The translations under genes were made by a program, and so were the position numbers. DNA of 53,390 nucleotides, counting the filler, from Jimgerdemannia flammicorona (taxonomy: Eukaryota), in assembly GCA_003990765.1 (NCBI GenBank). It is 3 parts of 3 records of this genome, joined end to end, with 100 filler letters (N's around TTAATTAATTAA, not from the genome) between each part and the next. Parts side by side here need not be neighbours in the genome. Positions count along the whole stretch, not along the records: positions 35,664 to 53,390 come from RBNJ01002436.1; 2 more parts are not named here. One strand, written 5' to 3'. This document shows positions 3,213 through 53,390 of the stretch, piece after piece. The notes under the pieces are model-generated. The model ran no database searches, was not told where the DNA came from, and worked only from the letters and a program-made list of their open reading frames with translations. Within the stretch, counting starts at the first letter, position 1; each line of letters opens with the position of its first letter.

Positions 3213-3287
3213 TTTTTTTTTTTTTATAGTCACTTGGACTCTGCCTTTATTACCAGTCTATGAATAAATATACATCATCCCAACCCA

Positions 3288-6945: not shown

Positions 6946-6978
6946 ATTGATGATATATGTGATGTCGTCAATCCGCCT

Positions 6979-9003: not shown

Positions 9004-9091
9004 GTTGTTAGTCTCTCTTTGCCAAAAATGATGTTGAAAGTGCCTTCCAAAGGTTGTGTAACCTGAATGGTACTGGAAAGAGATGTTGATG

Positions 9092-9106
9092 TGGTAACAT
9101 CTTCCT
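9092..9106. repeat. Target-site duplication, right copy (TGGTAACATCTTCCT)
   Basis: Identical to 3198-3212. Confidence 0.9.
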
Positions 9107-12934: not shown

Positions 12935-15900
12935 CATATACAAGAGGCAGAGGGAGCTACTGGCAAGTATGGATGGAGGGGAGAAGATGAAGACTGGGGG
13001 CACTGAAAAGTCTAAGGGTGTAGAGGCAAGTGTCTGGGCCAGTAAGGGAGAAGGTGATGTGGAGGAGGGCCTGGGAGGGACTGGGAAGGTACCACACAAA
13101 GACCCATATGCTGATGGTATGTTTGAGATCTGGGAACTGATTTTTGGTAACACTCCCCCTCTGGTCAGACAAGGTCCAACTGCAAGGGGGGGGGGGTGGT
13201 AGAGGATATACTGATAGGGGTGCTCAATGGGTACACTTTGGGATGTCTGACATAATGAAGAGAGGGCAGGTGGTGGCAGTTGGCAAGGATGAGCTGATGG
13301 ATGTCCTGGAGGAGGGGTGGGATGAGACTTCCAGTATAGGGGCAGATACCATGATGCTGGATGCAGGAAGGCTGGGGATGCCTGGAGGGAAGGAGGTGGG
13401 AAACTTGCTGTAAATGAGCAAGATGATAGATAACTTTGCAGCTGAGGAGTTGGGGGAAGTGGACTTAAGATTGATGAGTGAGTAGTATTGGATGAGAGTT
13501 CTGCATAGAGATGGGGTAGTGGAGGCACTGCTGGCAATCATACTGAAGAAGAAGGGTTATGAGGTTAATAAGAAGAGAGAGGCTGAGCTGACAGTCATTG
13601 CTGGTGAGTGGGCTGCTTATTGTTGGGCAGAGCATCATGGTTTGCAACTCTGGTAGGAGGCATGTCTGGAGTATCATGAGGACTTCAAGGAAAAAGAGAA
13701 TGGGAAGATGGCTGAACTTCTGATTAGACTGGAGACAAAGGTAGCTGAAGAGAAGGAACTGGCTGCTGAACACAACCTGGACTTGGTACAGGAGGAGTTG
13801 AATGTAGATTTGTAGAGGATGAGATAGATATTAATATCATTTCTTATGAACAGTACAACATTATCTCTCTAAATGTGAATGGGCTAAGGGGATCTGGGAG
13901 GCATAAGAACATTTTTACTTGGCTTAAGAGATTGAAGACTGATCTCTTCTTACTGTAGGATGTACAGTGTGAGAATGAGGAGGATCAGGTAGAGTGGACT
14001 AGAGAGTGGAGAGAAGCTACTGCTTGGATTGGCAAAGTGGCAATTCTGGTAAGGAGGGGTAGAGGAGATTTGGGTGGAATCAGGAGCTGAGGGAACCATT
14101 TGATCTGGGGCAAATGGCATTGACCTGGGTGGGAACTGGTGAGGGTTGGCTCCTGCTACTGCCCTGTAGCTAGGGGTGAGTATATTGAGTGAGTTAGGGA
14201 TCTTTTGGAGGAGGCTATTCTTTTGGAGGAAGGAGTGGATTTCCTGAGAGGTGACTTTAATATAGTGCAGAATCCACAGTTAGATAGAACTGATTGAGGG
14301 AGGAGTGCAGATGGGAGGAGTGGAGGTCTGGATGTCTGGAAGGAGGTGGAGAACCTTAGCTCCTTGAGAGATATGGAAAGAACATGGTGGGGCAAAAAGA
14401 GAGTTTACACATACTGGGTGAATGAACTGGATATGAGAATTGACTGGATTCTGACTGCCAAATGCTGGGGTGTAGATGTTTGGAGGGCTCTGGAGATGGG
14501 GTGGTGCCTGTGGTCTGATCACTGGGAGCTCTTAGGGCAGAGGCAGTTTGGGGGGAGTAGAGATGGACCCAGACATTAGTGTCTTAACTCCTCTCTGCTG
14601 GCTGAGAATATATTGTGGGACTCATGAGTGGAGGACATCTGAGTGAAGGTGACTAGCTGGATATATAAAGGTTTACCTGTGGGTGTTTGTTGGATGAGGT
14701 TGAAGGAGGCTGTAAGGGTTTATTGGAGAGAAGCTAGTAGGGAGGTTGGGAGGCATAGAAGGAAGAGAGTAAGGTGCTTCTAATAGACTGCTTAGATTTC
14801 AGATGGAGTGGACTGATTTGATTTCTTCTGAAGAGGTGGGGGATTGGAGGTTGGAGTGAGCAAAATTGGAGATAGTGGAGCTGCAACAGATATTGAGAGA
14901 AGAGGAAGAGCTTCATATGAAAGGAATGGCTGCCAGACTAAGGTGGCAGGGGCTTAAGGAAGGGGAGAGGCCTACTAGGTACTTTTCAAGACTTCTCCAA
15001 GCTAGGAGAGTGTGATATCAATGGGATGGGATCCTTGATGCTAAGGGGGAAATGGTGCATGGTATGCAACCAATCTTGGGAGTACTGAAGGAGAGGTAGA
15101 GGGCACTGTGGAGTGAAGAGGAAGGGAGTACAGATGAGGAGGAAATTGGTGATACACTAGAGGAGTAGGAACTACTGCCAGTAGAGGTCCTTGAAGATTT
15201 GATACTGCCAGTCTGAGAGGAGGAGGTCCAGGGAGTCCTGGCAGTGACTAAGCTTGGAACAGCACCAGGAGAGGATTGGCTACCTTGGGACTTTTGGAAG
15301 AAGATGGTAAAGGTCCCTGGAGTGTTAGGAGAGATGGCATCCCTCTGTGACCATGTTCTTCTAAATGGCAAATGGGTTGGAGAGCATGACTTAGGGCTGG
15401 TGGCCTTGTTGTATAAAGACAAGGGAAGGAGGGAGGATTGGAAGAACTGGAGGCTGATCATACTTCTGGATATGGACAGAAAGATAGTGACCAAGGTAAT
15501 TGTTGCAAGGCTACAGAAGGTTGCCCAACAGGTGCTGGGAGAGGAGCAGAAAGGCTTTGTTAGAGACAGGCTTATCAGAGATAGGACTGCCTGGGTTCAT
15601 GACATTATTGAAGGAGCAAGGGCTTGCAGATTGGATGGGAGACTGGTCGTTTTGGACCAGGAAAAGGCCTATGACCATGTTTAACAGATGTGGCTAGGCA
15701 AGGTGCTAGATAGAATTGGTATTCCTCCATGATTTCGAGCTTCTATGTTGAATCTGTTGGAGGGAAGTAGGGCAGCACTGATGTGTAATGGTCACTGAGG
15801 TCTGGCATTCCCCTTGGGAAGAGGAGTTCCTCAGGGAGACCCACTGTCTCCTATCCTCTATGCTCTTTCATTAGAACCTTTGATAGATAGAATCTGACAG

Positions 15901-16597
15901 AAGATGGTAGGGCTCTCTGTATATAGTATAGTGTGGAAGGTGGGGGCCTTTGCACATAATATTGTAGTTGGACTTGGTTCAGTGGCAGATGTGGAGGTAC
16001 TTCAGGAGACAGTGGAATGATATGAGGTGCACTCTAGGGAAAACCTCAACTAGCATAAGTGTGAGACAATGGTGCTGGGGAATGGGCTAGTGGGAGGGGA
16101 AATCATTGGAACAATTGTCCCTACAGGAGAGGCAGTGAGATATCTGGGCATCTTCCTCTCTGTATATGGTTCTGTCTTACCACAAGTGTGGTGAGAGAGG
16201 AGGGTGGCCATTTGGGGGGAGGCTCTTAGAGGTTGGGGAGGTCACCACATCTTTCTAGCAGGTTGGGTATTGATCCTGAATATCTACTGGTTTCCCAAGC
16301 TATGGTATATTGCTTATCATTTGGACTTTTCAGCTTGGGTGGTGAAGAGACTGATGAAACTGGCTAGAGATTGGATTTGGGCAGGGAGGTGGTCCCAGAT
16401 TAGTTGGAATACTCTTACAATACTGGTGGTTTGGGGAGGACTAGGCCTAGTAGATTTTTCTAAGCAGCTGTATTGTCTGCAAGCTTGGTGGTTGAAAAGA
16501 GCTGTTGAATTGCAGGGAGGGAGTTGGGTACCTCTGATGCAGAAGGTGTGGGACATGAGATTCTCCCCATGAGGGTCCAAAGACTGTCTGCTGTGAA
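12935..16597 (+). mobile_element. L1/Tx1-type LINE copy 2, truncated at both ends and heavily mutated
   Basis: Starts mid-ORF1 (homologous to KRQKELLA of copy 1). ORF2 ATG at 13846. APGEDWLPWDFWKK, DQEKAYDHV and GVPQGDPLSP motifs. Ends abruptly after the RT with no poly(A). Confidence 0.92.
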
Positions 16598-17733: not shown

Positions 17734-17833
17734 NNNNNNNNNNNNNNNNNNNNNNNNNNNNNNNNNNNNNNNNNNNNTTAATTAATTAANNNNNNNNNNN
17801 NNNNNNNNNNNNNNNNNNNNNNNNNNNNNNNNN
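17734..17833. other. Assembly spacer (44 N, TTAATTAATTAA, 44 N)
   Basis: Fixed 100-bp six-frame-stop linker; identical at 35564-35663. Confidence 0.97.
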
Positions 17834-35563: not shown

Positions 35564-35663
35564 NNNNNNNNNNNNNNNNNNNNNNNNNNNNNNNNNNNNN
35601 NNNNNNNTTAATTAATTAANNNNNNNNNNNNNNNNNNNNNNNNNNNNNNNNNNNNNNNNNNNN
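35564..35663. other. Assembly spacer (44 N, TTAATTAATTAA, 44 N)
   Basis: Same linker as 17734-17833. Confidence 0.97.
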
Positions 35664-36028
35664 TATAATAAATATTAAGTCAAAAAAAAAAATTAAAATT
35701 TAAAATTTTTTTGTAGCTAAATTTGGCTATATCATATTACAGAATAAGGAATATATAATTCAGCTTATAATAGTTATGATGTTGCTCTTATTTATTTATT
35801 TTACCTAAAGTATCTGGTAAAGATTATTATACTTCTTTCTATAGGTCTCTAAAATATCTTTATAAATAGTATTGGTACTTAGCAGATATAAATCATACTT
35901 GAGGAGACCAAAGATGTTATACAATTAGTTACTTTTAATAGTTATGAATAGTTAGTCTATATATACAATCTAGTAAATAAGTTGATTTTGAAATTTTGCT
36001 AAAGAATATAGTTAAATATTTTTGATTA

Positions 36029-38061
36029 AATAAGAGGGTTACTTTTTAGGAGAACTATTACATAGTTCTGGAAGGGTTTTCTGGATGTTTTAGAAGACTG
36101 TTTTCTTATGGTCAAGATCAATTTCATATGGAGTACGTCCTCTATGCTTATTGACTTCAAGTTCAGGTTGACATCTCAACCAAAGTCCTTTTTTTTCAGA
36201 CTAGTTCTAGATGTTCAGGATTTTCTATATTTCAGGAAGTTTAAGAAACTAAGACCAGCTTAGTTGAATTGGCGTATTGCTACAGACAATACCCAATTAG
36301 GAAATTTTGTGATGGGGTTAGGAGTAGGATCTAATAGAGAGCAGATTTACTTAAGAGTGGCTTGTGGGTTATTAAATAGATTTATTCACTATTCATGATA
36401 TTGCTATACTAGAAGTAGTTGTGTGAAGGGATATTGTGGGGAAGTGCTCAGGAGTTGTGTTTGGATTGTTCAAGTGTTCCAGTCTGAGATTCTGAGGTCT
36501 GGGGGAGGGGGTATTTATACTAGTGAGGGGCTATCTGAACTATGTTGAATATAGATATAGTACTAAGTGCCTTGCTGAGTTGGAATACAGTCATATAGTA
36601 CAAGTGTGATCTGACATATCAAGAGATCGTCTGACTGCTGAGTCAGTTCACAGTCATGTTGTACAAGGCTAATCTAACTATACTATGACTGCTAGGCTAT
36701 TTATAGGTTTAGGCACTATCTGTGTAGTTTTCAATGACATTACCATTGATTGCATTATCTCTAATGAAGTAGTCATCTAGGAAGAGTGGTTTGCAGATTA
36801 CTTCTCCTTGTTCACTGAGATAATAATACATTAGAACTTCATCACCATCCCACAGAATAGCATCATCTGTCTCATATGCTGGATAAGGTGTTGGTGAGCA
36901 AAGGAGAGGTGCATCATCTTCACTTTCATCGGATTTGCTGTCTGCATATCTTCTGCAGATTACAGCACTATGAGTTGTGGGGTTGTAGTAAACTGGTGGC
37001 TGTGATTCATATTGCTCATACTCAGGTGGTGGAGTGGTTGGTTCAATCTCAAGGGTTGTCTAAAGATACAGGTTGTGTTCTCCAGTCTCTTCATTATAGT
37101 TGAAGTAATCAGAGATGAATGTGGGTTAGTATTTGTGCTAGTGATCATTGTCCCAATAAGTCTCATAGGCTGTTATGAATTGTTGCAAGTTCATTGGCAA
37201 GATTGGCAGTGTGATCAGGGTTGGTAGAGATCCTTGGCTTGAGGTCATGTCGGCATCAGAGGGATCATTGTCTTCTGCTTCATCTTCATCGAAGTGGATT
37301 ATATCATAGATATCCTTCATAGTGTATCTGACTTAGGGCATTTACAGGATATGATTGTTGGAGTGGGGGAAGATTCTGTCTGTGGTTTCAATATACTCAA
37401 GGTACTTGTGGTTAAGTTCTTGTATCATATCGTTGATTTGGCCATAGGACAGAGTAGCAACCATTTCGGCTATGATAACTCAGAGGCGGGGAATAACAGT
37501 GCTATACTCATAGAAGAGTTCTCGATGTTTGCAGGCAATGAGCTTCTGATATTGAGACATCTGGGTAATGTCTATATCATGGTGGTGTTCAACCATGTCT
37601 TCTAAGAGGTGGCCGATCTGGTAGTAGCTTGAGATTTGTCTGATTCAGTGGGCCTTGCTAAGTATGTTCAGGGCATTCCATCAGGCTTCCACAAAGTAGA
37701 GAGGTGCTAGGCTATGGATATTCATGAGGGGCAGAGGGGGTGTGGCTCAGTTGACAATAGCATTCCAAATGTCAGCATGGATATGGTTGTAGCTCTTGGT
37801 GGTCATATTTGTGTGTTAGAAGTTATAGTTGTTATTTGTTTTGGTTCTCTGTTTCGACATGTCTCGGTGCTTGGTATATATGCATTTGGTTCTGATTAGT
37901 AAGATTCTGTTTATGTGAATCTTGTGTTCTGTGACTTTGTATTGACTCAGCTTTGTGTACTGTGACTTCGGATTGACTCAGCTTCATGATCAAGCAGGTG
38001 ATTTCCAGATTTGTTCAGAGGTCGCATGTGATTTCAGTGGCTTGGAGGTTGTACACTTACA
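36029..38061 (-). repeat. 3' LTR (~2033 bp)
   Basis: Colinear with 44528-46559. Starts TGTAAG on the minus strand at 38061; the outer terminus is mutated. Confidence 0.95.
36709..37806 (-). pseudogene. LTR (U3)-encoded ORF of unknown function, 365 codons, 3' LTR copy
   Basis: ATG at 37806 to TAA at 36709-36711 is 1098 nt, the same length as the other copy. Internal stops are single-transition types. Confidence 0.75.
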
Positions 38062-38075
38062 ACTCTCCCCTTCTT
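38062..38075 (-). other. Polypurine tract AAGAAGGGGAGAGT
   Basis: Immediately precedes the TGT of the 3' LTR. Confidence 0.88.
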
Positions 38076-38489
38076 AGCTTTCAACATCCTTGTTGGGGCC
38101 TTCTAATTTATTCTAGTGTTGTTACACCATTTAGGAGATCAAAAGTCTAATGAAGTCCATTTTTCTCAGAAAGTGGCATGCTCATAGTGCAGTTGCCTAA
38201 CGTATTGGATTCATATGTTAAAGAGTTATGTGTTTGATACCATGTGCTGGAAGTGATTCTGATGTCATTCACTGCTGGAGAATTTCCTCTGAGGAATCTT
38301 CTTAATTATCTATGTCTTATTTCCCACCAGTGGTATAGAGAGAATAGGCTTGCTTTCAGTTTTGCTATTTTTCCAGAGGGTCAGTATTCTTGTCTTGTTT
38401 TGCTGAGTTCTTGGTTTGGTTTGCAATAATTATAATATTCGGGAGGTATAATATATAGTATGTACTGATAGGTGTCAGAGTATTCAGTT

Positions 38490-41400
38490 TTAGTTGTTCA
38501 AGGAATCATATTCCTGAACTAAGTTGATAGCATTCTGGAGATTGGTCTTGGGTTCCCAGGTTGCATCATGGATTGGGTAACCTTTCCATTTGACAAGGTT
38601 CTCTAGGTAGTTCTTATAGCCATGTTTGTTGAGGATTTGTTCAACTTCGTACTCTTCTTGGTCATTAATAATGACAGGTGCAGGTGGTTTCATGGTTCGG
38701 TTAGAGAATAGTTCATCATCATTCTCATTGCATCACTTGAGACATTGGACATTAAAGACTGGGTGAATCTTAATAGTGTCTGGTAATGCCAATTTGTAGG
38801 AGGTTGGAGAGACTTGTGCAATGACTTCAAATAGTCCAATGAACTTGTTGTTCAGCTTTATAGATGGTCTGTGCTTGAGGTTGTCAACTCAGTATCCTCT
38901 GATGTCCAGTAGAACTTTTTCTCCAATATCAAAGATTTCTTCTTGGCAGTATTGGTTAACATACTGTGACTGTTGTTCTTGAGCTCATGATAAATTCTCG
39001 ATAGCAATCTGGCTTAGATTGCACATTCGGAGTAAGAATTCTTCAACAGCTTCGACTGTAGAGGGTTCTTCAGTGGTTCAGATAAGTGTCAAAGGGGTGT
39101 TTGGGTTTTGTCCAGTATTGGCAAAGAATGGGGTCATTCCAAGAGAGGCTTGCTTGCTGTTGTTACATATAAGCAAACTCAACTGGAGTGAAGTATTCAT
39201 GCCAGCCATCTTGTCTGTAGGAAACATAGTTCCTTAGCATTTGTTCTAGAGTTTGGTTCATTCTTTCAGTTTGACCATCAGTTTCAGAGTAAAAGGCTGT
39301 AGATAGTGCAAGTTTTGTTCCAAGGTGTGCATGAAGGGCTTTCCAAAAATAGCTGGTGAATTTTGGGTCTCAGTCACTAACAATGATCTTAGGAAGACCA
39401 TGATAGTAGAAGATGTTGTCAAATAAGAGTGTGGCTATATCTGGTACTGTTGCAGTAGTGGTAGTAGGCACAAAGTGGGCTTGTTTGCTGAGGTAATCCA
39501 CAAAGACAACAATTGCATATTTCCCGTTCTTGGTTCAGGGTAGTTGTACAATGAAGTCTATAGAGATTTGTTCCCAATTTGCAGAGGGTACTGGGATAGA
39601 GTGAAGTAAGCCAGGTTTTGCTAGTGTTGAGGACTTGTTTCATTGGCAGGCATCATAGGAAGTGATGTAGGTTTTGAGCTGATCTACCATGTAGGGCCAA
39701 TAGAAGTTTCAGGAGATAACTTCATAGCATTTGTCAAATCCTAAATATCCAGCTGTAGATGTATCATGACATTCAAATAGGATAGTCCTTCAGTTGGTAT
39801 TGATGATACTGTGTACACTTGTCAGCATCATCACTATTCAGGATTTCTTAGAGTGCTTGAGCTTCCTTATCATCAGTATATACTGTGATAATTTGTTCCA
39901 TGATGGTGTTTGTAACCAAGGTGAGAGTTTGGATAACTTCTTTGATTGGTGGTCTGGAGATTGCATCAGCAACAATATTTTCCTTGCTAGGGTGGTACTG
40001 GATTTTGTAGTCAAAGTTGATGAGGACTTTTATCCATCTGGCTTGCTTTTGAGAAAGGGTAGCCTGTGTCTTGATGTTGACTAATGACTTATAGTCAGTC
40101 AATACAGTGAAGTGTACTCCTTCTAGGTATAGTTGCCATTTGATCAGGGTGTCTATGATGGCTAACATTTCCTTCTCGTGGGTTGCATAGTTAATTTCAG
40201 CATCATTGAACTTGCAGGAGTGATAGGCCACAGGGTGTTCTTCTTGCATGAGTACTGCTCTAAGAGCTAGGTCAGAGACATCAGTAGTAACTTCATATGG
40301 TAGGGCAGGATTTGCTGCTTGAAGTACTGGAGTGGTTATCAGGGCATCTTTCAGTGCTTGAAAGGCTGTGTCTTGTTTGGGTCCCCAATTTATAAGATTG
40401 TTGAAGTCTTTCTCTTGTTTCATGGTCCAGGGCTATTCTTCTTTCTTGCTATGCTTGGTCATTTGGGTGAGAGCAGTGGCGATTTTAGCAAAGTTGGCAA
40501 CAAATTACCTGTAATAGTTTGCTAATCCCAGGAATAACTGGAGGTCTTTCAGCTTCTTGGGTCTGGGCCAATCTTTGATTGCAGAGATTTTGCTAGGGTC
40601 TACTTTGATTCCATTTGGAGTGACAATGTATCCAAGGAATTGAATTTCTTTCAGAAGAAATTCACACTTGCTGAGTTTTGCAAAGAGTCGGTTTTCTTGG
40701 AGTTTCAGTAGTACTAGTTCAAGATATTCAAGATGTTCCTCTAGGGTTTTGCTGAAGACTAGGATGTCATCAATATAGACAACAATGAATTTGTCCAGAT
40801 ATGGGTGCAGGATAGTATTCATCAGGGTCTGGAAGGTTGTAGGAGCATTAGTTAAGCCAAAGGGCATAACTAGAAACTTGAAGTATCCATAGCGAGTTCG
40901 GAAAGCTGTCTTGTAAATGTCTTCTTCTTTCATAGCAATTTGCCAATAACCATTTCACAGATCAAAGGAGCTCATGAATTGTGGGTTGATAAGTCTATCA
41001 AATATTTTATCGATCCTCAGTAGTGAGTAACAGTTCTTGATGGTCTGTTCATTGAGGTCATGGTAATCAATGCACATTCGCAGGTCTCCTCCTTTTTTGA
41101 CAATAAAGAGGACCAGTGCACTATAGGGTGATACGCTGGGTCTGATGAATCCTTGTTCTAGGAGTTCATCAATTTCTTTCTTGAGTGCATCGATTTCTCT
41201 CAGAGACATATGGTAGATTGACTTAAAGGCTGGTTTGGCATCTGGGATAGTCTTGATTATATGGTCTACTATTTATTTAGGAGGTAGGCCTTTCGGGAGC
41301 TTCTTTGGGATTATGTCTCGAAATTTCTGGAGTAGTGGTCTGACATGGCTGTCAACTTTGGAAAAATCTTCTTCAGAGTTCTCAGGTTCTCCTTTGGATG

Positions 41401-41880
41401 AATGGATGGAGATGGTGAAGAAAGGGCATTTCTTAGCCAATTTCTTAAGTTGTAGCTTATTGATGTGGGTGATCTTTGGTCCAGGGTCACTAGAATTAAG
41501 TGGGTCCTTTTCACCTTGCAATTTGAAGTTGTGGCATCCTTTCTTGATGGCCAGAGAATGGTTTACCCAATCAATCATGGGGTTCTCTTGTTTTAACCAT
41601 AGAGTCCCAAGAATGATTTTGTTGTTCAGGAGTGGTACAATCTGGAGGGTAATATATACTCGATAGTCACCAATTTGGAAGGGTAGATTGCAGACTTCTT
41701 TGCTAATGATATGTGAGGTTCCATCAGCTGTGGCAACTACTTGAGTTTTTTGTACTGGAGAGGTAAAAACCTTGAGTCTGTTGGCTGTTTCCTCATTGAT
41801 AAAGTTGCCTGAGGTACCACTGTCTATCATAATCTTGACAGGTGCTCAGTTGACAAAAGCTTTAAGTGTAAGCAGTTTGT
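38490..41880 (-). pseudogene. gypsy pol: protease, RT, RNase H, integrase, chromodomain (many stops)
   Basis: IDSGTSGNFI; LRMCIDY, KTAFRT, MPFGLTNAP, VYIDDILVFS; VTTDVS, NYATHEKEMLAI, NIVADAISR; integrase Zn-finger and core remnants; chromodomain EYEVEQIL...LVKWKGYPIHDATWEP. Confidence 0.96.
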
Positions 41881-42089
41881 CTGATTCAATGGTGGTGATT
41901 TCAGTTATTTGAGCTTTTCTTCTGTTGGTTCTTCTTTGAGCCAGTTCATTGATACAAGAGAAGCAATCATCAATCATTCAGGAAGAGTACATTCCAATGC
42001 TATGAGGGCATTGGCCACTTGGTACATATCCATCTTCAATCTTCTTGTAGAATTGTTCTTCTTTACTCATGGTAGGTTGGGCTGGGGCC

Positions 42090-42500
42090 TTTTGATGAGC
42101 CAAATCCTTTGGATCCTCAGATGGTAGATAGTAGTTCAGGGACTTCCTTGACTATCAGGGTTGACTCAATTTTTTTGAATAGGATCTGGGCAATGCAGAA
42201 ACCTATAGGGATCTTGAAGGGTGTCTAACTATAGTTTTGGATGAGGACAATGATTTCGTCTGTGTAATCTTCATCGATAACTCCTCCTTCCACTGAGAGT
42301 CCTTTCAATGCTAGGCTGTTGTGACAGCATATTCTTCCAACATGTCCTTCAGGAATTTGAATACTGATTCCTGTATAGACTTATTTGACTTCTCAGTTGG
42401 AAACTGTAGCTTCTTCGGCTGCATACAGGTCATATCCAGCTGCTTTCTAACTTTCTTTGGTTGGGGCCTTGGCAGTTTGCCTTAACTTGACAAAGTTCAG
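42090..42500 (-). pseudogene. Trimeric dUTPase domain inside the gypsy element
   Basis: Manual translation: VKLRQTAKAPTKES*KAAGYDLYAAEE...YTGISIQIPEGHVGRICCHNSLALKGLSVEGGVIDEDYTDEIIVLIQN...IGFCIAQILF...STI*GSKGFGSS. All five dUTPase motifs are present in order. Confidence 0.9.
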
Positions 42501-42509
42501 TATTCTGGT

Positions 42510-44500
42510 GGTTAGGTTGTTGAGGTGGTGCAGAGTGGTAACAGTTGCTCATGTTGCTGTTCAGGGTTTTCAGTTAGGGCAGGCACTGGCCATGTGTCCT
42601 GTCTTTTGGCAATAGAAGCATGCTCCACTTCTTTGAAGTTCATTCCTTTTACCTTCAGTGAGTTTCTTGAAGGTACTCAGTTGGGTAGATTCATAATTTC
42701 TAGGTGTCCAAGAGGTGGATGTGGGGGGAGCTCGGGATGCTTCATACTTGGGTTCTTCTTTCTTGGTCCAAGTCTTTTCCTTGTTGTTGAATTGTCTTCG
42801 GGGCAGAATTGGTCCAGCTATTAGGATTCACTTGACCGTAGTCTTGATTCTTACCAAGTACCATTGTTGGTGATCACAACCAACTGGGCAGTCTTGTTCT
42901 CGGATTTTTCTAGTAAGCCATTCAGGCAGTGCATCAAATAAATGGTCTGCTCTTGTACCATTCTATGCTTCATCATTGGCAATATATCCTAGGCCAACAG
43001 TGTTCAGGAGTGACTCGAGTTTTGTACAGAAGGTTTCAAATTCTTCTTTGCCATGTACATCAAATTTGAGGTTGTGGAGTTTTACTCAAGATTCAGCAAT
43101 CATGGTTTTGCTGTAGTATTGAGCAATCATGAGTTGTTTGAGTCCAGGGGCTGCAGGATGGGCTCCATATCCTGGGGCATTGTTTGCTGCATTCTGAGTA
43201 ACTACTGCAGGTCGGGTATCCCATGTGAGGGGTTTTTCAGGAAGGGTTTGCCACCATTCTTCGGCAGGTCCTCAGAAGAATGTAACAACTCAGTGGACAT
43301 AGGCTGTAGTGGTAGCAAAGAGTTGTTCCAGAGTATGGTCTTGATTATTTGTCAGAATGTGGTCAGCAACTCGCTCATTGGTCTATTGATTGGCTTCGAA
43401 GTTAGTATCAACTACACTAATGAAGCTTTGGACTTCTTGTGCAGTACCATTGAAGGTAGGTAGGCTCAGACTTTTGGTAGGTTGGGCCTGTTCCACTAAG
43501 GCAGTAATAGTTGCTGCCATTATTACTACTTGGGCTGTGAGGTCTAGAATCTGTTGGTTTGCTATGTTGTTTACTAGAGGTGGTTGGACTGCTGGTAGTG
43601 GTGTTACTGGTACTACTTGAGGTACTGGTGCAGAGTGTGATGGGGTTCTTTGGGTCTGTGTAAGTTGCTGGAGTAGTAGTTGTGGGTCTAGAGTGAGGGC
43701 TTGATAGATAACTGTTTATTACTATGTAGGTGTATTCTGTCCTGATGGAGGTACTTCTCCTTCAGTGGTATATCTGGAATCGAATTCACTGAGATACTCC
43801 TCCTCCTCTTCGGTTTGGTCCTTATATAATTGGGTTTGCTCAGCGTCGAAGTAGATGAAATCAGTTATATATCTGATTTCAGATGGACTTAATTCAAAGT
43901 CAAGTTCAGGTTCAGTATTGGTTTCAGATTCAGGTAGGGCTGTAGCAGGGCCTGCTTCAGGTTCAGGGTCAGGTAGTTGATGAAGGGGTTCTCTTGCTTC
44001 TTCTTTAAGAATATGGCAGGCCTTGCTGTTCTGGAATCGATAGTATAATGCGGTCTTGGTCCTGGTATAGTGAAAGTCAGTAGAGTTGAGCCACTTGGCT
44101 ACAGAGGCTTGGGCTTCGTGAGGGACTAAGGCTTGAAAGACTGCTGCTGGTTATCCTAGGTCACTTGGATTTATGGAGCTGACAAAATTCTTATTAAGAA
44201 GAGTAAAGAAGGCTTCAATAAGACCTTCTTCATCTTAACTTGCTGGGTGTAGGGCAAGGAGTTTGGTGAATAGAGTTTCGCCTATTTGCTAATTTAACTG
44301 GAGTATTTCTTTCTTCGAATGAAGTTTGTCCCACTTGTTGTAGGTATGGAGGTCAAATTGTCCTTGTATATCAGGTTCAATTCTCTCCAGATTGTCAGAT
44401 GGTTCAGGATAAATTCCAGTTCAGAGGTTGGGCTTTATACCAACTTGTAGGAATTCTTAGAAGGGTTTGTAGTGGAGTGAGGAAGCATCTTGAAGTGGAT
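42510..44500 (-). pseudogene. gypsy gag (capsid-like region and CCHC knuckle) with a long in-frame upstream extension
   Basis: LPTFNGTAQEVQSFI, GPAEEWW, and knuckle CFYCQKTGHMASAC at ~42579-42620. The frame continues upstream almost to the PBS. Confidence 0.85.
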
Positions 44501-44510
44501 TTGGATTGTA

Positions 44511-44524
44511 AACTGCTGCTACCA
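44511..44524 (-). other. Primer-binding site TGGTAGCAGCAG (likely initiator tRNA-Met)
   Basis: TGG begins 3 nt after the 5' LTR end; TGGTAGC matches tRNA-iMet-type PBSs. Confidence 0.75.
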
Positions 44525-44879
44525 AGTTGTAAGAGAGTTACTTTTGAGGGGAACTATTATATAGTTCTGGAAGGGTTTTCTGGATGTTCTGGAAGACTAT
44601 TTTCTTATGGTCAAGATCAATTTCATATGGAGTATATTCTCTATGCCTATTGACTTCAAGTTCAGGTTAATGTCTCAACCAAAGTCCTTTTTTTTCGGAC
44701 TAGTTCTGGATGTTTAGGATTTTCCATATTTCAGGAAGTTCAAGAAACTAAGACCAGCTTAGTTGAATTGGTGTATTACTGCAGACAATACCCAATTAGG
44801 AAATTTCGTGATGGGGTTGGGAGTAGGACTTAATGGGGAGTGGATTTACTTAAGAGTGGCTTGTGGGTTATTAAATAGG

Positions 44880-45019
44880 TTTATTCACTATTCATGATAT
44901 TGCTATACTAGGAGTAGTTGTGTGAAGAGATATTGTGGAGAAGTGCTCAGGAGTTGTGTTTAGATTGTTCGAGTGTTCCAGTCTGAGATTCTGAGGTCTG
45001 GGGGAGGGGGTATTTATAC
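44880..45019 (-). promoter_or_regulatory. Candidate LTR core promoter and poly(A) signal
   Basis: TATAAATA at 45011-45018, then AATAAA at 44880-44885 on the minus strand. Both are conserved in the other LTR. Confidence 0.55.
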
Positions 45020-45206
45020 TAGTGAGGGGCTATCTGGACTATGCTGAATATGGATGTAGCACTAAGTGTCTTACAGAGTCGGAATACAGTCATATAGTAC
45101 AAGTGTGATCTAATATGTCAAGAGATCATCTGACTGCTGAGTAGTTCACAGTTATATCATATAAGGCTAATCTAACTATACTATGACTGCTAGGCTATTT
45201 ATAGGT

Positions 45207-46304
45207 TTAGGCACTGTCTGGATAGTCTTCGATGACATTATCATTGATTGCATCATCTCTAATGAAGTAGTCATCTAGGAAGAGTAGTTCGCGGATTACT
45301 TCTCCTTGTTCGCTGAGGTAATAATATATTAAAACTTTGTTACCATCCTACAGAATAGTATCATCTGTCTCATATACTGGATAAGGTGTTGGTAGGCGAA
45401 GGAGGGGTGCATCATCTTCACTTTTATCGGATTCGCTGTCTGCATACCTTCTGTAGATTATAGTACTATGAGTCATGGGGTTGTAGTAAGCTGGTGGCTG
45501 TGGTTCATGTTGCTCATACTTGGGTGGTAGAGTGGTTGGTTCAATCTTGAGGGTTGTCTGGAGATATAGATTGTGTTCTCCAGTCTCTTCATTGTAGTTG
45601 AAGTAATCGGGAGTAAATGTGGGTTAGTATTTGTACCAGTGGTCATTGTCCCAATAAGTTTTGTAGGCTGTTATGAATTATTACAAGTTCATCGGCAAGG
45701 TTGGCAGTGTGATCAGAGTTGGTAAAGATCCTTGGCTTGAGGTCATGTTGGCATCAGAGGGATCATTGTCTTCTGCTTCGTCTTCGTCAAAGTGGATTAT
45801 ATCATAGATGTCCTTCATGGCATATCTGACTTGAGGCATTTGCAGGATATGATCATTGGGGTGGGGGAAGATTCTGTCTGTAGTTTCAATATACTCAAGG
45901 TACTTGTGGTTGAGTTCTTGTATCATGTTGTCAATTTGGCCATAGGATAGGGTAGCAACCATTTCAGCTATGGTAACTCGGAGGTAGGGAATAACAGTGC
46001 TATACTTATAGAAGAGTTCTCGATGTTTGCAGGTGATGAGCTTCTGGTGTTGAGACATCTGGGTAATGTCTGTATCATGATAGTGTTCGACCATGTCTTT
46101 CAGGAGGTGACCAATCTGGTAGTAGCTTGAGATTTGTCCAATTCGGTGGACCTTGCTAAGCATGTTCAGGGTATTCCATCAGGCTTCCACAAAGTAGAGG
46201 GGTGCTAGGCTATGGATATTCATGAGGGGCAGAGGGGGTGTGGCTCGGTTGACAATGATATTCCAAATGTTAACACAGATACAGTTGTAGATCTCAGTGG
46301 TCAT
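45207..46304 (-). pseudogene. LTR (U3)-encoded ORF of unknown function, 365 codons, 5' LTR copy
   Basis: MTTEIYNCICVNIW...SSYYQIGHLL...KHRELFYKY...DEDEAEDND...IEDYPDSA*; 1098 nt, no frameshift; contains ORF-track 45681..46163. Confidence 0.78.
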
Positions 46305-46440
46305 GTTTGTGTGTTGGAAGTTGTGGTTGTTATTTGTTTTGGTTCTCTGTTTCAACATGTCTTGGTGCTTGGTATATATGCATTTGATCCTGATTGGTAA
46401 GATTCTGTTTATGTGAATCTTGTATTCTGTGACTTTGTAT

Positions 46441-46478
46441 TGACTCAGCTTTGTGCACTGTAACTTCGGATTGACTCA
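46441..46478. promoter_or_regulatory. Two AP-1/Gcn4-type TGACTCA sites near the LTR 5' end
   Basis: TGACTCA at 46441 and 46472, conserved at 37943 and 37974 in the other LTR. Confidence 0.45.
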
Positions 46479-47071
46479 GCTTCATGATCAAGCAGGTGAT
46501 TTCCAGATTTGTTCAGAGGTCACATGTGATTTCGGTGGCTTGGAGGTTGTGTGCTTACAGTTATTGATACAAAAATAGTTAGGTAATCAGATAAATGTAC
46601 CCACTATAGCTTAGATATCAATTTTATTTATTTCTATATTCTTTTTGATTTTGTTAGGATATTTATCTTTTATATATTAATATATATTTGAAGTTGAACT
46701 ACTAAGCATTTTGAACTTCTGATTATATAATATAAAGAGGTTAGTAGAACATTATATATGTATATATCAAATAAAAGTATTAGTTATATCATAAATGTGT
46801 CTTTTTTTTTTAATTTTTTATCCACAATAATTACAATAATATCATCTCCAGTCTTAGTATAATATTGCTAAATTTTGGAATGAGGATTGTGTGAAAAGTG
46901 TAAAACTATCAAGAATATTTAACTTGAAGTATTATTGATACTATGAACTATTGAAGACTAATCTATCAATATGTGTATTTATATATTTGTATATATGTTT
47001 TTGCATATATATATATTTGTATATATATATATATTATATATATATATATCTTGTATATGAGTTATATAGAG

Positions 47072-47340: not shown

Positions 47341-47810
47341 GGTCAAACTGTTTCATAATAAATTGAATCTAGATTTAATTTTAATTAATTCATTCAGAAT
47401 ACTAGGTTAAGTATAGGTATGAAAATAAAAATAAAAATAAAATAAATAGAGTTATATAATTGCTTCTAAGCCACAAATTCTTCAGATTTAATGAGAATTT
47501 TTTTTAAATAAATATAAGAAAATAATAAAAAAAGCTCTCTATAAGATTATTGTTTAGGGAGTTTTTTATTATTATTATTATACTTATTGTCTAGAAATAG
47601 AATTTTAAAAATAAAGTAGATAATTATAGATATAGAGTACTATATAATTTATATAATTATATAAAAAATACAACTATATAAAACTCACAATTATATAGAT
47701 TATATAGATATATAGATCTTATATCATGACCCTTTCACCAGTAACATTTGGGTGACACAAGACTTAGACAATACTTTTTACTATGTTTTTGGTATTCAGC
47801 AACTATCAAC

Positions 47811-49724
47811 ATGGATGGCAACAATCGAACTAATGAGTGTACTGGCCAGAGGGGTGACAGCACCTTTGGCTGGCAGCAGGTGGGGAGGAGGGGAGATAGT
47901 TTGGGGATACTAGGGGTCTTGATGGCTAGCTGAGGTCCTGGTGGTAGAGGGAGGGGCAGGCTAAGGCAGCGAGAAGGGGAGCGGTTGACCTTTGCTGACA
48001 AGGTCAGAATGGGAAAGATGGCCTCAGGCCTTAATAGTTGGCTAGGCCTAGGGATGGCATCGATGGCTGCTGCTAGGGGACAGGGAGGTGTACCCAGGGG
48101 AGTCTCAGATAGCAGAGGAGGAGCGGGAGTAGGGACTGGAGATGTGACTGCTGATGGGGCTGTGACTGGAGATCTGGCAAAAAATCCAGATGTGATAGCA
48201 GTTGGCATTTCAGAACTGAGAGTGGGCATGAGGCCTGGGGACCTGGCAGATAGGGTGATGGGCATGGTGTTGGCCCTGTTACTCAAGAAGTCAAGATCAG
48301 AATTCGTGGTCACAATGTGCTTCCGGGGCTTGGCGGTGACAGCGAGGATAATTTTGGGGCTGGTGGTGCAGGAGACTAAGAGAGCAGCATCAGTGAAGTT
48401 TTTTAGAGTGAAGGAAGGGGTTGAGGTGGGGTTTGAGGAGAAGGATGCCTTGTTGGCAGCCATAGAGAAGAGGGTGATGGTTGGCGGGGTTGTGGTCCCT
48501 ATGGCCCAGTGCATGCGCTGGGACCCCCGAGTAGTGCAGTTGACAGTGTTGGATCTCCCTACTGTGTCAAAGGAGAGGACCAGGGAGTTGGTTGTGGTGG
48601 TGATCAAGGAGTATGGTGAGATTGTTGATATTGGGTTCAAGGTCTGGGAGGGCACGGAGCTTCGAACTGGTGATGTAGATGTCAGGGTGAGGCTGGCCAG
48701 GAAGGAGAATACAGGGAAGTCGAGGGACTGGCCAGCAATGCTGAGGTGGAGACCAGTGGAGTGTAAGGTCACAAGGGTGAAGGGGACCCCAGAGGAGGAG
48801 GAGGACCTGTTGGAGGCTCTGGAGGATCTGGAAGGGGTGGTTGCAAGGAGAAGATTGGCCTGGAAGGAGTTTGAGGCAAGGATGGTGGTGGGGGAGGTGG
48901 ATGGGAAGAGGGTCTGGATGGAGAAGGGGGCCTGGGAGAAGATGCAGGAGAGGAGGATCCAGAAGGAGCTGTTGGCGAAGTTGGTTGGAGATAGAGCCAG
49001 TGGAAGCTCAGGGGAGGGAGTTGCAGGGTTGCAGGAGAGCGCCTGGGCTGAGGGGGGAGAGATGGCCCAGGGTGGAGCTCGGATTGGAGTGGGGGAGGAG
49101 AGGGAGGGCAATTTGGAGGCAGATGCAGAAATGGGTAAGGGTGTGCACCCTCAGTATAGTGTTCCAGATAGAGCAGAGGGGGAGGAGGAGCTGCTGGATG
49201 TGCCAGATGAGGAGTGGGATGAGTCAGTGAGGAGGAGCGCACTGGTGGACCCCGAGGTGGATGGGGGATGAATCGCTCAGGGTATAGTAGAGGTGGTGGA
49301 TGAGAAGTGGATGTGGAAGACCCTGGAAGGGGTAGCAGCTGAAGAGCTGGGGGGTGAGGACTTCAGGGTGATGGAGGAGAGGCATTGGGAGGAGATTCTA
49401 CAGGGGGAGGAGGTGTCGAGAAAGATGAGGAATGAGATCCTAGCTGTCCTCCTGGAGATGGTGGAATATCAAGTTGATGATCAGCAGGAGGAGGAACTTA
49501 GGAAGATTGCGAGTGACAGGGCACTTTTCTTGTGGAACTCGAGGAAGGGACTGGTGAAGTGGTGTGCAGTCTGCTTGGACTACTGGGCAGATATAGAGGA
49601 AGTGGACAGGGTGGAATGTCAGAAAATCTTGGGGGCACTGGATGATCAGGCTAATGTGGAGGGTGACTTGGAAGCTGAATGGTGCTTGGATCTGGTGGGG
49701 GATGAGATGAGCATGGATTTCTAG
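47811..49724 (+). pseudogene. LINE ORF1 (interrupted by stops)
   Basis: Homologous to 6979-9003 (TFADKVR, KNPDV, WDPRVVQL, VDIGFKVWEGTELRTGD). Confidence 0.85.
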
Positions 49725-49755
49725 GTTGGGGTCTCTGTTGCAATATTTCTTCAAT

Positions 49756-52700
49756 ATGAACAGTATAACTAGGATATTCTCATTGAATGTTAATGGGTTA
49801 TGGGGGGTGGCTAGGAGGAAGTATATATTTGGTTGACTTAAGGGACTGGATGTGGACCTCTTCTTGTTACAGGATGTTTGTTATGAGGCAGATGTGGACT
49901 TATAGGATTAGATTAAGGAATGGGGGAGCACAGCAGTTTGGAGGGGGAAAGTATGTATTCTCATTCAGAAAGGGATGGGGGACATTGGGGACATTGGACA
50001 TTAGGAGTCTCGGGTGGTGTGGGGAGTGTAGAAGAGGCCTGGATGGGGCTCACTGATGGTTGGGTCTTGTTACTGTCCAGCTGAGAGAGGGGAGAGGATG
50101 GAATGGATTTGTAGATTGAACGAGACTGGCATACTGGGAGAAGTTGGGCTAGACTGTATGGGGGGTGACTTCAATATGGTTTGAGATAAGGAGATGAACA
50201 GAACTGATGGAGGGAGAGGCATGTGGGGTGAAAGTGGGGGGTTGGGTGACTGGTTGGAGATGGAGCGGTTGTGTTCTCTAGTGGACTCGGGGAGACATTT
50301 TTGGGCTGATTGGCAGGTATACACCCACTGGGCAGCAGAGCTGGCTCCAGGATTGACTGGGTTCTATCAGCAGAGTGTTGGAGAGCAGATGTCTAGTCGG
50401 TGTTAGAAATAGTATGGTATCCGTGGTCTGATTACTGGGGGCTGCTTGGAGGGGGGAAGTTTGGGGGAAATAAGGATGGGCCTGAACATTGGTGGCTAAA
50501 CTCTTCCTTATTGGAGGATAGGGTGTTGTGGGAGGGTTGGGAAAAGGAGGTGGTTGGAAATATCAGCAGGTGGTGGGAATAAGGACTGGAGATTGGAGAC
50601 TGCTGGAGAAGACTGAAGGTAAATGCTCAGAGTTATTGGAGAGAAGCAGGGAAAGGAAAGTGTACCCAGTGAAGGTGGCGGGTGCTGTGGGCCTCGTGGC
50701 ATCTAGCAGCGCTCATGGAGAGATGGGTAGGTGCACTGGAGGATGGGGACAGGACTGACTGGCATATTGTGAGAATCTGGCAAGAGGTAGAGGAGCTTAA
50801 AGAGGTGTTACAAAGAGAGGAGGAGGTGCAATTGCAGGGAATGGTGGCCCGACTGCAGTGGCAGGGGCTTGAGGAGGGGGAGAGGCCTACTAGGTTCTTG
50901 TCACAGTTGTTACAGGCACAATGAACAAGGCAGTGGTGGGAGGGAGTTTTGGACATGAATGGTGAGCTGGTGGTGAGGACTCCAGCAATTCTGAGCCTTT
51001 TGAGAACCCAGTGGAGGAATCTTTAGAGTGAGGAGGAAGGGGGATTGGATGCTCTGGACATTGAAAGGCAGCTGGGGGATTGACACCCAGACCCTACAAT
51101 GGGACTTGGGGCACTGGGGGACCTGGTGAGTGGCAAGGAAATTTGCAGGGCTGTGGCCTCAACAAGTAAGGGGACAGCCTCGGGAGAGGATGGACTTCCC
51201 TGGAATTTTTGGCAGAAGATGACTGGGGTGGGTGAGGTGCTGGAGGAAATGACTGCTATGTGTGATGGAGTTCTTTGGTCTGGTGCTTGGATTGGGGAAC
51301 AGCGTTTAGGGCTAGTCTCCTTGTTCTATAAGAACAAGGGTAGAAGAGAGGACTGAAAGAACTGGCAGCCAATTATGCTTCTCGACATAGACTGCAAACT
51401 GGTGACAAAAATCTTAGTGATGAGGCTGTAAGGAATCGCTCAGCAGGTGCTAGATGTGGAGCAATGTGGGTTTGTCAGCAGTCAGTTGATTCGAGATGGG
51501 ACAGCCTGAGTTCATGGAGTTATTGAAGGTGCCCAGATGACAGGGGTGGATGGCAGATTAGTGTTTCTGGACCAAGAGAAGGCTTATAATAGAGTACAGA
51601 GAATATGGCTAGAGGGAGTACTGAAATAGATTAGTATCCCCCTGGGGTTCTGAGGATCATTGATCAGCCTTTTGGAGGACAGTCAGGTGGCATTGGTCAT
51701 CAATGGCCACAGGGGGGTGATCTTTCCCCTGGGATGTGGGGTACCACAAGGGGACCCCTTGTCATCCATATTGTATGCCCTTTCCCTGGAGCCACTACTG
51801 GACAGAATTCGGTATTGGATTGGAGGTTTGGACATTTTGGGGGTTAACTGAAAGGTGGGGGCCTTTGCTGATGACATGGTGGTAGGGCTGGGCTCCTTGG
51901 TGGATGTGGGGGAGTTACAGAGGACTGTGGAATAGTATGAGAGGGGTTCTGGTGCTAAACTAAACTGGCACAAATGCGAGATGCTGGTACTGGGCACTGG
52001 AATTGTTGGTGGTAATATCATTGGGACAGTGGTACCAGCTGGTGAACCAGTGCATTACTTGGAGATCTACTTTTTGGTGTTCAGATCTCTTCTTCTCTGG
52101 GCATAGTGGGACCATAAACTTCTAGAGTGAGGTAATGTTTTGCTGTGATAGGGAGGCTGGCATATGTCCCTAGCCAGAAGGGTGTTGGTGTTGAATATGT
52201 ACTGGATGCTGAAGCTGTGGTATGTTGGATATCATTTGGATTTCCCAACCTGGGTGGTCAAGAGGTTGTTGAAGATGGCGAGATCATGGATCTGGGGAGG
52301 GCGGTGAAGCCAGATTGGTTGGGAGGTACTCACACTACCCTTGGAAAGAGGTAGGCTGGGCTTAGTGGACTTTACTAAGTAGTTTCGATGTCTGAGAGCC
52401 TGGTAGCTGTGAAGGGTGAGTGAGCTTAGGGGTCGGGAGTGGGTGCCACTCATGCAGAGGTTGTGGGAGGTTTGGTACTCCCCACACAGTGGCTCTGGTA
52501 ACCTGCTTGTGATGGTGGCCATGGAGGGGAGTAGGAGGATGTGGTTTATGGGCTTCTAGTAGGGGGTGGTGGATAGTGCTAAGAAGATTGGACTTCAGTG
52601 GCAAGGTGATGAAGCCAAGGAGGTGTGGGGACTGCAGATGTGGCGGTGGGATAGACTTCTACTGAGTGGTGTTCTGGTGGAGAACTTTCAGCTTGGCAAG

Positions 52701-53390
52701 GGTCTAGAGTATCTGCGAGGCCTAGGTGGAGACCTGTGGCCAGAAGCCTGGCAGAGGGTTGGAATTGGTGAAGAGTGGGATTGGAATGGACTCTGGCTTT
52801 AGAGCAAATGAGTGAGGCAGTGGCTGCCCCCCAGGTTCTGGGTAGTGTGGTGGCAGGTCCTATGGCAGAATGTGATGTTGAACTATCAGTCTGGATACTT
52901 GGTGGACAGTGGGGTATTCGAGTGTGAGGATTGTTTCAACATTGGTCAGGAGGGAGGAGTGGTACAAATGCCTGAACATTGGCTTGGCGAATGTGAGGTT
53001 TTGGAGGAGTTTTGGAGATATATTAGGGACTGAGTAGGGCTGGGTGCCTTGGAGGAAGAGAGAGGGGGGAGATGGGGTGAGCTTTGCCAGTGACTGGTGG
53101 GTGGGGTTGGGGACGAATGGCTGACCCTTGGTTGGGCTTTGGCTATGTGGGTTGGGTTGGCTGGGTATTGGGTTTATGTCTTTGAGAAAGGGCATCAGGT
53201 CGGGGTTGATGACAAGGTGGCCCATTGGGAATGGTTGTTATTGGACATTTTGAATAGTTGGTGGTGAGGTTGGGGGATGGGTGGGGGGAACTGCAGGGAT
53301 TTGGTGCAGTGTATCTCCTAGAAGAGTGGTGGGAGGATTCGAGTTATGGGTGACTGAGTGGTGCTTGGATGGAAAGAGATTAAGGGGGGG
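49756..53390 (+). pseudogene. LINE ORF2 (APE, RT, Zn finger), disrupted
   Basis: SLNVNGL, GGDFN, WWLNSSLL and RT motifs as in copy 1; multiple stops and frameshifts. Confidence 0.92.

Follow-up and report, generated by a model that had tools for sequence, protein, structure and literature searches.

Does a retrotransposon of Jimgerdemannia flammicorona carry a protein gene inside its own long terminal repeats (LTRs)? The question arises from a stretch of 53,390 nucleotides of assembly GCA_003990765.1 (the window), in which a sequence-only reading had marked out a single element, a chromovirus with an open reading frame (ORF) in the unique 3′ (U3) region of LTRs of about 2 kb. We are reasonably confident that this element is a dead member of a Ty3/gypsy chromovirus family of high copy number, with a protein gene in each LTR, most likely in U3. 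That it belongs to an already described kind, the chromoviruses with a dUTPase, is close to certain.

A reading frame in both LTRs

The element has all of its coding sequence on the minus strand, as seen from Pfam matches and from stop-to-stop frames with motifs of protease (PR), reverse transcriptase (RT), and chromodomain. It is framed by direct repeats of ~2 kb set 8.5 kb apart, which blastn aligned from 36031-38052 to 44530-46550 at 90.6% identity over 2023 bp, and the limits of these LTRs were set by the terminal inverted repeat TGTAAG...CTTACA (Table 1). Contigs from four public runs, three of them soil metagenomes and one a coded organism (8582, 966, 1596, and 750 contigs), were mapped to the element; they spanned it end to end, piled up inside the LTR limits, and dropped off outside them. 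In run X1, depth rose from 25 to 1129 on entering the element at its left end and fell from 346 to 1.6 on leaving it at its right. The inverted repeat and the depth edges agree, and the limits 36029..46559 given by the sequence-only reading proved exact. The LTR ends of TG...CA type (one of them mutated), a primer-binding site (PBS), a polypurine tract (PPT), and flanks (ATTA and GTTA) that form a probable 4-bp target duplication with one transition are those of a Ty3/gypsy element. So is the Pol order of PR, RT, RNase H, and integrase (IN), which was evident from the order of the Pfam matches and from collinearity with P0056, an intact metagenome relative.

Within each LTR one reading frame stands out. 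It spans LTR positions 397-1353 (251-318 codons, with TAA at 1351-1353), and a second ATG (LTR 598; 45962-45960 in the 5′ LTR) is kept in both copies. Stops in this frame number 4 and 7 in the two copies, against 14/30 and 14/38 in the other frames, and no frame is favored in the remaining 680 nt of the LTR. The LTR stretch with the frame was as deep as the internal region in all four runs. Two stops are common to both LTRs, a TAA at codon 185 (45624-45626 and 37126-37128) and a TGA upstream of the frame at LTR 382-384; these may have been present at insertion, have arisen twice, or have been carried from one LTR to the other by conversion.

When the LTR protein was searched against 5.8 billion clustered proteins, a single relative came up, P0003, which is intact, 247 aa long, and 60% identical and 78% similar to the query (E 1e-90). 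The methionine that opens P0003 matches the second ATG, and the end of P0003 coincides with that of the LTR frame. Where only one LTR copy has a stop, the other has a codon for Q, W, or R; opposite all eight stops that fall within the range of P0003, counting the shared one, that protein has Q or W. Such pairings of stop and sense codons are compatible with single transitions. We consider it probable that the LTR frame is a protein gene or was one until recently.

The LTR protein has a pI of 4.05 and a composition of 18.6% D+E, 9.7% P, and 9.3% Y, with no Cys. It is without a membrane segment, the highest 19-residue hydropathy (KD19) being 0.97. The product is acidic, proline- and tyrosine-rich, soluble, and probably disordered, and we take it to be an element-specific accessory factor and not an analog of an envelope protein or a superantigen.

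Position of the frame within the LTR

The frame ends ~190 nt upstream of a putative TATA box, TATAAATA, and a putative polyadenylation signal, AATAAA, lies 130 nt past that box; the block holding both is nearly free of LTR-LTR differences. With these motifs as landmarks, the LTR would divide into U3 at ~1-1570, the repeat region (R) at ~1570-1700, and the unique 5′ region (U5) at ~1700-2033. Because the frame ends upstream of the TATA box and then of the AATAAA, the gene likely lies in U3. Of the U3 ORF put forward in the sequence-only reading, the ORF itself is present in both of the ~2-kb LTRs but is broken by stops, and its placement in U3 rests on the positions of these motifs.

With the LTR gene in U3, the genomic RNA would lack it at the 5′ end and carry it at the 3′ end, behind pol. 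The gene could then have its own promoter, within the first ~400 nt of the LTR, and use the LTR poly(A) signal; alternatively, a subgenomic RNA made by splicing could express it, a route that would draw on the gene of the 3′ LTR copy. The gene would likely have begun as a post-pol gene lying ahead of the 3′ LTR and have become part of U3 as the PPT in use moved upstream.

Alternative readings of the frame

The frame might instead be passenger DNA in a long U3, that is, a captured or once-coding relic or an accidental open frame, and not a functional gene. The TAA at codon 185 in both LTR copies suggests that the parent copy already had the stop, and we estimate that 165 codons in a row without a stop would, taken alone, reach no more than borderline significance at this composition. 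The protein also stands apart in the databases. No Pfam family matched it up to E 5, a phmmer search with P0003 found nothing besides the query among 1.84 billion representatives, leaving the LTR protein with no relative besides P0003 there, an ESM Atlas search with the LTR protein gave no usable match, and its alignment A1 found no match among metagenome, viral, and genome contigs. Neither the Atlas model (pLDDT 0.39) nor AlphaFold2 with a 3-row alignment (mean pLDDT 34) yielded a confident fold. Against a passenger stand the 247 open codons of P0003, which keep the same end codon at 60% identity, the sense codons that face the one-copy stops in the other LTR and the Q or W that face all eight in P0003, and the rarity of stops, which are 3-5 times fewer in the LTR frame than in the other two, a bias absent from the rest of the LTR. 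We regard the passenger reading as unlikely.

A true gene could also lie in R/U5. A second TATA-like site, TATATA at LTR 182, stands in both LTRs upstream of the ATG at 397 and allows a leader position, in which transcription would start near LTR 210 and the frame would form the first cistron, repeated at the 3′ end of the RNA. This arrangement needs an R of ~1.5 kb, far above the usual R sizes in LTRs, and several ATGs, as well as an upstream frame of 41 codons, come before the LTR frame. The canonical TATA box at LTR 1542 and the AATAAA that follows 130 nt on, both within a stretch almost the same in the two LTRs, fit the usual U3-R-U5 plan, and we consider a position in R/U5 very unlikely. 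Besides the TATATA site, several points weigh against the reading that we prefer, a protein gene in U3. The codon-185 TAA and the upstream TGA, shared by both LTRs, are possibly older than the insertion; if they are, the LTR gene was already broken when the parent element transposed, and a possible pre-insertion TAA at codon 185 makes a weaker case for the parent having needed the gene in cis. P0003 is the only homolog of the LTR protein in the databases and, coming from a 998-bp contig, need not lie in an LTR or next to a dUTPase element. The LTR protein has neither a confident fold nor a family, hence no function can be read from its sequence. Finally, the four runs possibly include the source sample of the window itself and are not fully independent.

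Possible consequences of a gene inside the repeat

A bolder proposal, which we advance tentatively and hold to be possible at most, is that the chromovirus lineage keeps a true accessory gene in U3, each LTR, solo LTRs included, being a self-contained gene. Such a gene would consist of a promoter in the first ~400 nt, a frame for an acidic protein of 250 aa, and the LTR's own poly(A) signal, and the protein would work on the element's behalf, perhaps by countering host silencing or by helping to handle the particle or the cDNA.

Extra genes in LTR retrotransposons show routes to added functions, towards retrovirus-like complexity. Were a conserved gene to sit inside the repeat, each cycle would place a copy at either end, solo LTRs would retain it, and hundreds of small expressed genes could be scattered across a genome. 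If the gene is real, it provides a testable case of U3 growth by capture of a post-pol gene, and its product would be a new family of orphan proteins, linked to a soil eukaryote's high-copy element. If it is indeed an accessory gene of U3, a retrotransposon, and not a vertebrate retrovirus, would for the first time be seen to have a U3 gene of the retroviral kind. The combination of dUTPase, long gag, and chromodomain, for its part, adds one more member to a published layout.

Gag-pol domains of the window copy

Pfam searches on the three minus-strand frames, with stops written as X, returned zf-CCHC, dUTPase, RVP_2, RVT_1, RT_RNaseH, Integrase_H2C2, rve, SH3_Tf2-1, and Chromo, in this order. 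The chromodomain lies C-terminal to the integrase, after SH3_Tf2-1, and its three aromatic positions (EEY, KW, GY) are readable in the translation. At the other end, gag extends upstream of its capsid-like part, which starts at about 43480, by at most ~330 codons of unchanged frame. The stops there number 6, compared with 19 and 27 for the other two frames, and no Pfam family was found in this extension. In P0056, ~235 residues precede the aligned LPTF capsid motif, and the alignment of P0056 to the window begins ~110 residues before that motif; the more ordinary relatives P0066 and L001 (a metagenome contig) have 0-100 residues at the position of the extension. No env was found, the 414 nt between the pol stop and the PPT being without an ORF.

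Much of what the sequence-only reading had proposed for the internal region was thereby borne out: an extended gag, in the near-open frame and the ~235 residues of P0056; a dUTPase between nucleocapsid (NC) and PR, in the place of PF00692 between zf-CCHC and RVP_2; an integrase chromodomain, in the PF00385 match; and no visible env.

The complete order is LTR, PBS, gag with a long N-extension, CCHC, dUTPase, PR, RT, RNase H, integrase, SH3, chromodomain, PPT, and LTR. Judging from the biology of the families concerned, the element would have followed a standard Ty3/gypsy cycle with a single polyprotein cut by its own protease. The dUTPase would be packaged in the particle and lower dUTP, leaving little uracil in the cDNA, and the chromodomain would steer integration to marked chromatin.

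The dUTPase and its relatives

The reading frame of the window copy changes after the residues GFGSS, and the two extra bases that other copies hold at 42090 put dUTPase and protease into one frame. P0005 (537 aa; 87-88% identity to the window) has a single frame running through the latter half of its dUTPase, PR, and RT; the frame change in the window is therefore a defect, namely a 2-nt loss. An ESM Atlas search with P0005 returned a mixture of eukaryotic taxa, all with scores below 0.9. P0056 (1964 aa), which is encoded on a 28.7-kb contig, has the whole of gag-pol in one frame, with the N-extension followed by gag, CCHC, dUTPase (566-693), PR (826-955), RT, RNase H, IN, SH3, and a chromodomain at the very end.

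PF00692 was found in 7 of the 120 listed long homologs of P0005. By Pfam, the dUTPase is ahead of PR in five of the seven (P0056, P0066, P0060, P0101, and P0104) and between PR and RT in the other two (P0111 and P0122). We placed these in an RT-RNase H tree of 37 rows, made up of the window, the 7 dUTPase matches, 11 named algal or plant sequences, 16 unnamed chromodomain sequences, and 2 fetched loci; all rows were of Ty3/gypsy type with no retrovirus row, and 86 other listed homologs were omitted. In this tree of database matches the window grouped with chromodomain-bearing elements and, among them, with P0056 and P0060 (SH-aLRT 96). The remaining dUTPase elements were elsewhere, on weakly supported deep branches, with P0111 and P0122 in a different part of the tree. 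The test of relatives that the sequence-only reading had called for was answered in part: the dUTPase is present in the close relatives P0005, P0056, and P0060.

The homotrimeric dUTPase is defined by five conserved motifs, all of which are present in P0056, P0060, P0066, P0101, and P0104. In the window, motif 2 has decayed (HN vs RS in relatives), motif 3 has D vs G in P0005, and 5 stops cross the domain; in motif 4, a C for R is common to the window family and P0005. The dUTPase segment of P0056 matched trimeric dUTPases from cellular sources, from large DNA viruses, and from lentiviruses (PDB, best E 1e-23), and no betaretroviral entry was recognized among the 60 PDB chains listed for it.

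Beside the dUTPase we noted a C-x-H-x11-13-C-x2-C motif, located at 41954-42010 (minus strand) in the window, 101-119 in P0005, 747-765 in P0056, and 433-449 in P0066, which may be a zinc-binding module. It follows the dUTPase in the window, P0005, and P0056 and precedes it in P0066, a difference in position that hints that the dUTPase entered the elements at different points.

A search of metagenome contigs with P0101 recovered 8 loci, P0101's own contig not among them; no dUTPase was present in the 12 ORFs scanned from six of the eight, which were ordinary chromoviruses. The contig L001 offers a baseline for the ordinary layout, being a complete and apparently young chromovirus with identical 350-bp LTRs (1212-1561 and 5666-6015) and a single gag-pol frame of 1386 aa with no dUTPase. 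Searches with P0005 against viral contigs, with P0056 against genome contigs and viral contigs, and with P0066 against viral contigs gave no match.

Decay and copy number

No intact long ORF is left in the window copy. Searched by tblastn with P0056, it aligned over 43559-38505 at 36-58% identity in four pieces and three frames, with 30 stops crossed, and at least three frame breaks interrupt its gag-pol. By its sequence, the window copy is dead. Transitions make up 193 of the 204 LTR-LTR differences, and the sites changed, as a share of those in one LTR copy, were 67 of 102 CpG (66%), 73 of 321 CpA (23%), 38 of 220 CpC (17%), and 11 of 266 CpT (4%). This pattern is that of methylation-type deamination and points to cytosine methylation of the element in its host. 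Classic repeat-induced point mutation was rejected as the cause of decay, CpG sites being hit most. The window copy was ruined after its insertion by C-to-T/G-to-A decay, strongest at CpG, together with small indels. Where the run contigs differ from the window copy, they mostly have G or C against its A or T; this, with their end-to-end cover of the element, indicates that the family is high-copy and that the window copy is a decayed member.

Surroundings of the element

At least three separate contigs make up the window, joined by two identical linkers (44 N, TTAATTAATTAA, 44 N) at 17734-17833 and 35564-35663. Adjacency across the linkers is therefore meaningless, and the element's own contig is 35664-53390. 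Neither a second copy of the element nor a tRNA gene was found in the window. Among the 78 stop-to-stop frames of at least 100 codons outside the element, Pfam matches of known function were confined to two, both reverse transcriptase, and a third frame had a below-cutoff match to DUF6944 only.

Blocks of extreme GC skew (~50-57% GC, skew ~0.4-0.55, in an AT-rich background) were located at 3000-9100 (minus), 13000-16000 (plus), and 48000-53390. Two of them hold RVT_1 frames without LTR-type partners, at 4300-5631 on the minus strand (E 1e-24) and 15217-15681 on the plus strand, which suggests that these blocks are non-LTR retrotransposons with a strongly one-sided base make-up. In a GC-skewed block, two stop-free frames overlap on opposite strands, one of 471 codons (47738-49150, minus) and one of 445 codons (47934-49268, plus); neither matched a Pfam family.

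Table 1. Features of the element, in positions of the window
Feature	Positions	Strand	Details and basis
Whole LTR retrotransposon, decayed copy	36029..46559	-	10,531 bp; repeats, Pfam, run contigs, tblastn
Probable target-site duplication, left	36025..36028	.	ATTA (+ strand); one transition vs GTTA
Probable target-site duplication, right	46560..46563	.	GTTA (+ strand); pairs with ATTA
5′ LTR (element sense)	44528..46559	-	2032 bp, TGTAAG...CTTACA
3′ LTR (element sense)	36029..38061	-	2033 bp; last two bases TT vs CA in 5′ LTR
LTR reading frame, 5′ LTR copy	45207..46163	-	ATG at 46163; TAA 45209-45207; 318 codons, 4 in-frame stops
LTR reading frame, 3′ LTR copy	36709..37665	-	First ATG changed to ATA; 7 in-frame stops
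Putative TATA box TATAAATA	45011..45018	-	LTR 1542-1549; also 36512-36519 in 3′ LTR
Putative polyadenylation signal AATAAA	44880..44885	-	LTR 1675-1680; also 36381-36386 in 3′ LTR
Primer-binding site TGGTAGCAGCAG	44513..44524	-	3 nt past 5′ LTR
Gag N-terminal extension (upper bound)	43472..44456	-	Acidic; no Pfam family; no start codon survives
Capsid-like gag part and CCHC zinc knuckle	42573..43471	-	Knuckle at 42573-42623; Pfam, alignment
dUTPase domain	42093..42473	-	PF00692, E 1.3e-28; 5 in-frame stops
Frame break after GFGSS	42090..42091	-	2 more bases in other copies: 10 contigs, 4 runs
Conserved C-P-H-x13-C-x-S-C motif between dUTPase and protease	41954..42010	-	Motif comparison
Aspartic protease RVP_2	41540..41920	-	Pfam
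Reverse transcriptase RVT_1	40622..41104	-	Pfam, E 2e-32
RNase H (RT_RNaseH, RT_RNaseH_2)	40013..40387	-	Pfam
Integrase	39298..39792	-	Zinc domain 39628-39792, catalytic core 39298-39573; Pfam
Integrase C-terminal SH3 (SH3_Tf2-1)	38730..38924	-	Pfam
Chromodomain and pol stop	38490..38651	-	Chromodomain 38505-38651, PF00385, E 1.9e-11; TAA 38490-38492
Polypurine tract AAGAAGGGGAGAG	38063..38075	-	1 nt ahead of 3′ LTR

Comparison with known systems

In MMTV, the mouse mammary tumor virus, the dUTPase adjoins NC upstream of PR and a sense ORF lies in the U3 of the LTR; the virus also has env and two -1 frameshifts, and its Sag protein is a membrane-anchored type II superantigen. The NC-dUTPase-PR order and the sense frame in the LTR are both real in the window element, and both are like MMTV, whose LTR ORF is on record in the literature (e.g., PMC2118998, excerpt). 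We nevertheless consider it quite unlikely that the element represents an undescribed gypsy lineage converged on the betaretroviral accessory layout, with a sag-like gene in U3. None of the betaretroviral features sought in the element (env, a separate pro gene reached by a -1 frameshift, and a Sag-like membrane protein in U3) was found. Unlike MMTV, the element is without env and has no frameshifted pro gene, its relatives P0056 and P0005 reading dUTPase and PR in one frame, and its LTR protein is soluble and acidic (pI 4.05, KD19 at most 0.97), is similar only to P0003, and lacks the membrane anchor that makes Sag a type II membrane protein. The PDB matches of the dUTPase, as listed above, count against convergence as well, and the nearest rows to the window in the RT-RNase H tree, which had no retrovirus row, are dUTPase chromoviruses. 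The sequence-only reading had itself disclaimed homology to MMTV; with no pro frameshift in relatives, no membrane segment, and no recognized betaretroviral entry among the listed dUTPase matches, the likeness is one of analogy only.

A layout of dUTPase and chromodomain has moreover already been published for fungi, which also argues against such convergence: chromoviruses bearing a dUTPase, some of them ahead of the protease, were described in 2008-2010 (PMC2864245, excerpt). In chromoviruses of the basidiomycete Postia placenta, according to the same excerpt, the dUTPase occupies one of three places, namely the N-terminal end of Pol (PosPlaTy3-3), the C-terminal end, or the interval from PR to RT; earlier reports of dUTPases are cited there for Phanerochaete chrysosporium, likewise a basidiomycete, and Tuber melanosporum, and the fungal elements are given as having fused Gag-Pol frames, sizes from 4.4 to >13 kb, and, in some, "additional ORFs". 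The window element is like the PosPlaTy3-3 type in its chromodomain, its trimeric-type dUTPase upstream of the protease, and a possible single Gag-Pol frame, and unlike it in the LTR-borne gene, none being mentioned in the excerpted text of PMC2864245. The earlier suggestion of an undescribed lineage consequently goes too far for the layout of dUTPase and chromodomain, and stands only insofar as the LTR-borne gene appears undescribed.

Other elements have captured a dUTPase as well. Rotifer LTR retrotransposons carry a dUTPase domain, and in the rotifer elements Juno, Vesta, and TelKA, as in Tmt1 of Tuber and PosPlaTy3-5, it lies between PR and RT (PMC5408684, excerpt), an order shared by the metagenome relatives P0111 and P0122. 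Juno has an extra zinc-knuckle-like motif beside its dUTPase, as is seen near that of the window, whereas the three rotifer elements, unlike the window element, are without a chromodomain (same excerpt). The dUTPase Pfam family is also enriched together with retroelement domains in an Entomophthora preprint (excerpt).

Searches of the literature by title and abstract for genes in retrotransposon LTRs returned none beyond MMTV and a review of elements with additional ORFs (aORFs), and the LTR-borne gene appears undescribed in the literature searched. In that review (PMC7264820, excerpt), the plant and fungal aORF elements, such as Athila, Bagy2, Grande, RIRE2, Retand, and Boty, have their extra ORFs in the internal region; sense ORFs past pol are known among them, and some are expressed by splicing. 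The window ORF is like these in being a conserved extra ORF of obscure origin with no homolog outside the element. The aORFs lie between pol and the 3′ LTR or before gag, whereas the window ORF lies inside the repeat and, unlike them, is present twice in each element and also in any solo LTR.

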